A stretch of 64,000 bases of DNA. Origin: Podarcis bocagei. Lineage: Eukaryota. Positions 6,663 to 7,645 of the stretch are shown piece by piece. The translations under genes and the position numbers were made by a program. Where the stretch lies: NCBI GenBank assembly GCA_964188305.1, contig OZ076887.1. One strand, given 5' to 3'. Within the stretch, counting starts at the first letter, position 1. Each line of letters starts with the position of its first letter. Below the pieces are notes generated by a model that searched no databases, had not been told where the DNA came from, and worked only from the letters and a program-made list of their open reading frames with translations.

Positions 6663-6865
6663 GCTACAGGAGAAAGGAGGGCATTTGCAAAAATTGCTTG
6701 CCCTCCCTCCTTTTGCTAGAAACGAATATAGAATTGTTCTTGCTAGAAAGAGATTATAAGCTATGATATTTTCTGCGTGGTCTGTCAAGTGGATTTTTTT
6801 TAAAAAGTCCCTTAATTTTACACAGTACCTTGAATTTAGGCACAATAACTTGATTTCAATTAATA

Positions 6866-7104
6866 GGGGCATGGCTTGGGTGCGGGGGCTACTGCGCTGC
6901 TGGCGTTGCTGCCACTGTTGATGCCAGGCGTCGAAAGGGGCCACCAGAGCAAGTCCGGGCAGGTGGGCGTTCGGGCAGAGGAAATGGCGGATGAGGGCAG
7001 TGGCGCCAGGGCCGGTTTCCAGATAGCCACGAGTCTGGCAGAGGTAGCGAACTTGAGGGGTACTTCAGAGCAGGCGCTGCATCTCATCCTGTCCATTTTC
7101 ATGG
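6866..7104. other. 239-bp GC-rich insertion of unknown origin flanked by a 14-bp target-site duplication
   Basis: GATTTCAATTAATA is present at 6852-6865 and again at 7105-7118. Insert is 151/239 G+C (63%) with 14 CpGs inside AT-rich flanks. Confidence 0.85.
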
Positions 7105-7645
7105 GATTTCAATTAATAACTATGAGGCCCACCTTTCTAATATTGCATAATACCAATTACAGACTGGTTTGTGTTACTGAGGGCAGGGGTGGGGAGATGA
7201 AAGACTAGAGATACTGTCCTGACTAAAAATAAGGGTTTAAAAAAAAACAAGAAACATTTGGCATCAACTGGAGGCTGGTTTAGGGGTTATTGTCCAGAAG
7301 GAGACAATACGTGTGATTGTTTTCTCTCCGGAAGCCATGCTCAGGTGGTGAAAGTTAAGTATTGTTGCTCAGATAAGGTCTGAAAGCAGTTTTCCTGGAT
7401 GTCTTCCTTGCCCTTCTGCCAAATGGTCTCTATGAATGCAAAGCTGTGGACAGACATAGTCCAGACCTATTGACAGCTTTTGGAGGTGGAGCAGCGAGGA
7501 CTTTGAGCCTGCATTTTGGATACGACACTACTTCACATTTCTGACTAGAAATCTAAACTAGAGATGCAGAGATCACAAGAGACAAGTGGGTTGAATTAGG
7601 AAATTGCCTTTACATCTGTAATACTGAGAGCATAATTCCTAGCTG

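Follow-up and report, generated by a model that had tools for sequence, protein, structure and literature searches.

The window analysed here, a 64-kb stretch of Podarcis bocagei DNA, contains at positions 6866-7104 a 239-bp insert that lies between two identical copies of a 14-bp target-site duplication, at 6852-6865 on the left and at 7105-7118 on the right, both read on the + strand. The 14-mer occurs exactly twice in the window, at these two places. The insert is 63.2% GC with 14 CpG, in flanks of 39% GC with 5 CpG in each 1-kb side, and its frames include one on the + strand and one on the - strand that are stop-free, as well as another - frame with a single stop. Our recount reproduced the earlier note's description of the locus, from the perfect duplication, the insert length, the 63% GC and the 14 CpG to the AT-rich, CpG-poor surroundings and the frames. 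No poly(A) or simple-repeat tail stands between the insert and the right duplication, which abuts it directly, as that note had also observed. Two T residues (6850-6851, + strand) lie immediately 5' of the duplication, and the pre-insertion target, as inferred from the duplication, read TT|GATTTC.

Exact direct repeats of at least 14 bases, spaced 50-1000 bases apart and not of simple sequence, number only two in the 64 kb, and the second lies inside a MITE. Rfam gave no match within 6400-7600. The flanks of the insert had no match in the 405 kb of other loci that we fetched, and they show single-copy depth in relatives. Just left of the insert, at 6441-6645, is a high-copy repeat, over which contig depths add up to tens of thousands.

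Searching the lizard's own genome with the insert returned two candidates, both of which were scored: the insert itself, and a segment of another chromosome (G000:C17:40502705-40502945, minus strand) that is 76% identical to it across all 239 bases. The reverse search, with this presumptive parent, returned the insert as its sole other match. Both copy-number searches scored two of two candidates by a method that can miss very common words, and within that limit the multiple genomic copies expected of a repeat family were not seen. A search of the host genome was among the checks that the earlier note had proposed; the insert and its parent were the only candidates.

The parent locus is a CpG island of up to 81% GC with an ATG-led frame, whose 42 codons align with LPCAT3 in the PDB as far as residue 64 of entry 7f3x (E 0.004). 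Behind an AG acceptor, a single candidate for exon 2 matches LPCAT3 from residue 66 (E 5e-14), residue 65 of 7f3x is Gly, and the parent splits a Gly codon as G|GA at a donor reading ATGG|GT. Because exon 1 reaches residue 64, exon 2 resumes at 66 and the residue between them is Gly, the insert's final base is also the final base of exon 1, at a junction set by protein homology. The first intron measures 11,218 bases. In the parent island, the point where the copy starts lies 33 bases downstream of a CCAAT box. The copy's first part (6866-6983, + strand), aligned to G000:C17:40502945 downward, corresponds to LPCAT3 sequence 5' of the start codon and is likely 5' UTR; its second part (6984-7104, + strand) is the coding part of exon 1, from an ATG at 6984 through 40 codons to the initial base of the split Gly codon. 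The right duplication opens with GAT (7105-7107, + strand), the same three bases that open LPCAT3 exon 2, whereas the intron shares only the G.

A second copy of LPCAT3 exons 2-3 was not found in the genome search, and an MBOAT family search placed LPCAT3-region exons at the parent only, among 13 matches. One of the MBOAT-family matches, at G000:C17:35455307-35456002, is long and uninterrupted, with a 325-codon open frame, and represents either a large exon or an intronless gene. The insert is a single, sense, decayed copy of LPCAT3 exon 1 that lacks both intron and poly(A), and it is very probably derived from RNA. The foreign sources among the earlier note's options (viral, microbial or TE-internal) give way to the host's own exon, matching over the full length. 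The note was right that the insert is coding-type DNA, with an mRNA fragment among its options, and that it entered at a staggered break.

The parent holds 32 CpG and the copy 14. At the 59 aligned CpG positions there are 20 differences, every one of them C>T or G>A; elsewhere copy and parent disagree at 23 of 172 aligned positions, and within the coding part at 9 of 94. This one-way CpG decay indicates that it is the window that holds the derived, methylation-decayed copy.

Relatives were compared through 7 of 24 listed runs, five of which are DNA of other organisms (B, D, E, F and G, with C left out). The insert was present in all five. In B and in D a single contig crosses the entire stretch. 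Contigs bridge both insert junctions in E and F, but only the left one in G, where the right junction reaches 29 insert letters, two short of the 31-letter rule. With these contigs the insert is not an assembly artefact. A further run (X3), from another sample under the same species label, has no contig over most of the locus despite containing 78% of its words, and this hole is uninformative. None of the five other organisms shows a longer form of the copy. Flanks among these species differ by about 2-3%. With 43 substitutions between copy and parent, the parent's letter was found in another species at 7 of the 32 insert rows shown (6 rows more exist), and this scarcity of retained parent letters implies that most of the divergence is older than these species. 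At assumed rates, the insertion would be tens of millions of years old. The note's idea of a recent capture does not survive 24% divergence from the source, CpG decay and presence in all five other organisms, and the empty site that it had hoped to see in relatives was found in none of them. For the phylogeny of this species group the locus is a clean marker.

The perfection of the duplication in the window is a matter of luck, as organism G carries one mismatch, at position 6861, in the left copy. Decay is more pronounced within the insert. The start codon is altered in organisms D and E, organism E has lost 54 bases of the copy between ends that share a 2-base match, and organism F carries a MITE at 7061-7062, within the coding part, which interrupts the frame. 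The TA at that site arose by C-to-T decay in the copy, the parent having CA. The same MITE family, judged by its ends, is represented in the window at 5005-5350, by an element with terminal inverted repeats and TA ends that is presumably Tc1/mariner- or Tigger-like, and another of its end motifs lies at 23,790. With the frame broken in three of five other species, the copy is dead. Of the differences recorded, 12 of 13 in organism D and 4 of 5 in organism B fall inside the insert.

The pN/pS of copy against parent is 0.27. In neutral simulations with CpG decay, however, the 7 observed amino-acid changes or fewer arose in 19-54% of runs, so that selection on the copy's frame was rejected (P 0.19-0.54), and 91-95% of runs remained stop-free. 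The open frames are an inheritance from a GC-rich exon. From the copied ATG a frame of 74 codons (6984-7208, + strand) reads through into the flank by chance; it is not conserved and has no Pfam match. The donor GT is absent from the copy, having been lost at insertion. In the 12% of a single-cell run that was used, 6605-7055 had no depth and 7056-7105 drew about one read, which carried the parent's letters; this speaks neither for nor against expression. Most likely the copy does nothing now, being methylated-type decaying DNA that has no donor and changes faster than its flanks.

Downstream on the + strand lies a gene with PR/SET and C2H2 zinc-finger exons that we take, from its motifs, to be PRDM1. 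Its first recognisable coding exon is near 28,550, in agreement with the roughly 20 kb upstream placement given in the earlier note. No evidence connects the insert with this gene. The region around that coding exon (28,000-29,000) has no CpG-dense 500-base block, taken as at least 10 CpG.

An RNA intermediate and target-primed reverse transcription are suggested by the duplication and by ends that respect the exon, together with the sense orientation and a start below the CCAAT box. With modest confidence, we favour a tailless retropseudogene primed within spliced LPCAT3 mRNA, where the first three bases of exon 2 match the target. A LINE enzyme would have nicked the target site in an ancestral germline, and the nicked target would have paired through three bases with the GAT at the start of exon 2. 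Reverse transcription primed by the target would then have begun inside the mRNA and run through to the RNA 5' end. The enzyme may have been of L1 type, TT|GA being compatible with a relaxed L1 nick.

The target matches three bases of exon 2, in spliced mRNA, as against one base of the intron, in pre-mRNA. An anchored match of three bases occurs at 2 of 410 positions across exons 1-3, and at the junction the target matches 6 of the first 10 bases of exon 2; the joined-exon content of the copy is at most the three bases that it shares with the duplication. Among 126 G-anchored sites, the junction comes 109th for its target-mRNA duplex, which means no extended pairing. The predicted unpaired probability, computed for the modern sequence of three exons only, is 0.27 for the priming bases and is higher in exon 2 (0.52) than in exon 1 (0.31). 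Weighted by target 3-mer frequencies, the chance of internal priming at this junction is 0.002, and at either of the first two junctions 0.003-0.004, and the chance of a site that starts with GAT is 0.010-0.012. Against internal priming stands the exact end at a splice junction, which it does not predict; the lack of an extended duplex, the low predicted accessibility of the priming bases and a target that is not A-rich after TT also count against it.

The exact end is explained at no cost if the template was a free 5' exon, released in the first step of splicing or by a cut at the 5' splice site, with reverse transcription starting at its 3' hydroxyl and no pairing involved. That the target agrees with exon 2 would then be chance, a coincidence of only 1 in 85 to 1 in 100, and the long first intron (11.2 kb) suits such a route. 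A precedent exists in humans, where 6 of 17 gene/L1 chimeras have 5' exons that stop exactly at donors, the L1 of some lacking an acceptor, and where long introns are favoured, according to the accessible part of a preprint (bioRxiv 10.1101/2025.02.02.635956). On the other side, no stand-alone exon-1-only copy was found in the literature searched, which covered few subscription papers, LPCAT3 exon 1 has no sister copy, and six other CpG-rich stretches, a weak test, gave no exon-only copy. The splicing intermediate is also short-lived and held in the spliceosome. Noll et al. (PMC5322556) found no indication that pre-truncated RNAs serve as templates of 5S and U2 copies. By likelihood the free exon is ahead of internal priming about threefold, and prior documentation favours internal priming; in our estimate internal priming has the higher standing, and the free exon is a serious possibility of lower probability. 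Slightly more doubtful is the further claim that the insert preserves a splicing intermediate as a fossil in the genome, the free exon from transcription start to 5' splice site having been copied by itself at a LINE nick, and that it is the first in reptiles of an undescribed exon-1-only retrocopy route. One event cannot choose between internal priming and the free 5' exon.

Other readings fare worse. A full-length, poly(A)-tailed processed pseudogene could have lost everything from exon 2 through its tail in a deletion between two GATs, one opening exon 2 and the other the right duplication, which predicts an identical final sequence, and internal deletions with short matches do occur at the locus, as the one in organism E attests. 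Both ends of such a deletion would have to hit exact landmarks, the exon junction and the first base of the duplication, and a longer form is missing from the five other organisms, which leaves this history very unlikely. We regard as similarly improbable a copy made at the DNA level, by break repair templated on the genomic LPCAT3 CpG island, or one made from unspliced pre-mRNA primed by a single G. The copy contains no exon-exon junction, so that splicing lacks direct proof, and its 5' end is a putative transcript start. Still, the match goes no further past the donor than a single shared G, and its start is just below the CCAAT boxes, neither of which a DNA template need respect, and the 14-bp duplication is clean. 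Least probable of all is that the insert is recent foreign DNA, an artefact of assembly, or a copy retained because it serves as a peptide gene or a PRDM1 regulatory element. The GC richness, the open frames, the low pN/pS and the position on the same strand upstream of a developmental gene could be read in that direction. Foreign origin and artefact are both refuted by the full-length host source and by the presence of the insert in contigs of other species. As for a retained function, the amino-acid differences are compatible with neutrality, start codon, MITE and deletion have damaged three lineages, and the differences among species are concentrated in the insert.

Classical processed pseudogenes are poly(A)-primed and often 5'-truncated. 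Like them, the insert is an intronless copy of a host mRNA, flanked by a duplication and decaying neutrally; the loss is the opposite one, the insert keeping the 5' end and lacking the 3' end and tail. Closer in kind are tailless retropseudogenes, treated by Schmitz et al. 2004 (as cited in PMC5322556 and PMC2912911), with tailless copies of non-coding RNAs in PMC2912911, and defined by Noll et al. 2015 as 3'-truncated, without an A tail, with a duplication of 8-35 nt and target complementarity of 2-18 nt (PMC5322556; of each source we had part of the text). That text counts 2,402 cases in human, 4 of them from housekeeping mRNAs, and 8 5S and 63 U2 cases in the anole, 5S and U2 being the only RNAs screened outside human; it adds that many LINE clades act in lizards. 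The insert has four of the features given there and fails none: duplications of 8-35 nt with at least 70% identity (14 of 14 here), 3' truncation of at least 10 nt with no oligo(A) (the copy ends at exon 1), identity above 69% with a cellular RNA over at least 30 nt (76% over 239 nt), and complementarity between the target and the last 2-18 nt of the RNA (3 nt for the spliced mRNA). It resembles this class further in occurring in a lizard, the class being known in the anole. A 5' end complete to within 5 nt, also a feature of the class, may hold for the copy, whose start lies 33 nt below a CCAAT box in the parent. The class is further described as truncated in single-stranded regions of the RNA and as made by LINE-1 proteins. 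The insert differs in its source, a spliced protein-coding mRNA in a lizard, and in a target that is not A-rich: the bases after TT, GATTTCA, fit the consensus TT/WAAAAWW poorly, although the TT itself fits, and that consensus is a tendency and not a filter (PMC5322556). An end exactly at an exon boundary is not discussed in the text of PMC5322556 available to us, where the word "exon" has no occurrence.

The 5' exon/LINE-1 chimeras of the preprint cited above share with the insert a sense first exon or exons, a donor-precise end, a long intron and a position inside a duplication; as described in the part available, the exon in them is followed by a LINE-1 body and poly(A), whereas the insert's exon stands alone, with all 239 bases exon-aligned. 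Insertions of Bov-B LINEs and of Sauria SINEs have a Tn-TA signature, a statistical one in the accessible part of PMC13295347. Such insertions are active in this genome. A young SINE family of the host (L013-L021, about 350 bases, copies 94-95% identical) has a detectable 8-14 bp duplication in six of nine copies, and all six start with TA on the tail side, as in Sauria SINEs (PMC13295347). The insert's duplication is of like length and lacks this signature, starting with GA and having no T run about 10 bases upstream, which for one event is not exclusive.

As a locus the insert is neutral junk, and its unusual points are the missing poly(A) and the exact stop at a splice site. This anatomy poses a testable question, namely whether tailless mRNA copies end at splice donors above chance. 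If they do, retrotransposon enzymes would reach nascent splicing intermediates in the germline, and CpG-rich first exons would be movable without the rest of the gene. Should the free-exon route be true, the CpG-rich first exons of promoters would have been scattered, recording ancient start sites and donors. Standard retrocopy pipelines look for lost introns and poly(A), so exon-1-only copies would be missed by them. If copies prove not to be enriched at donors, the insert would be a rare lizard example of the tailless class. Tailless retrocopies have already been published, the anole included for 5S and U2 only; a stand-alone exon-1-only copy was not found in the literature searched, as far as the accessible texts go.

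Six other CpG-rich stretches near LPCAT3 yielded no exon-only copy, a weak negative given that one stretch only read as holding first exons. In three of the six, every candidate was scored and no exon match was seen at a foreign place; two were crowded by repeats, and 40 of 260 and 40 of 163 candidates were scored; the last is an internal exon whose sole match is an intron-bearing paralogue, presumably atrophin-like. This pair, L069 (on C17, near LPCAT3) and L070 (on C7), consists of paralogous exons that are 73% identical and share the donor. Two matches with equal ends also came up in the search and were set aside as AT-rich repeat, not exons. Upstream of the neighbouring CpG island, at L005:4277-4469 (G000:C17 near 40,477,300), is a very AT-rich tailless element of about 160 bases between perfect 15-base direct repeats, with at least two copies elsewhere (L061, L062) that are 88-91% identical and have the same ends.
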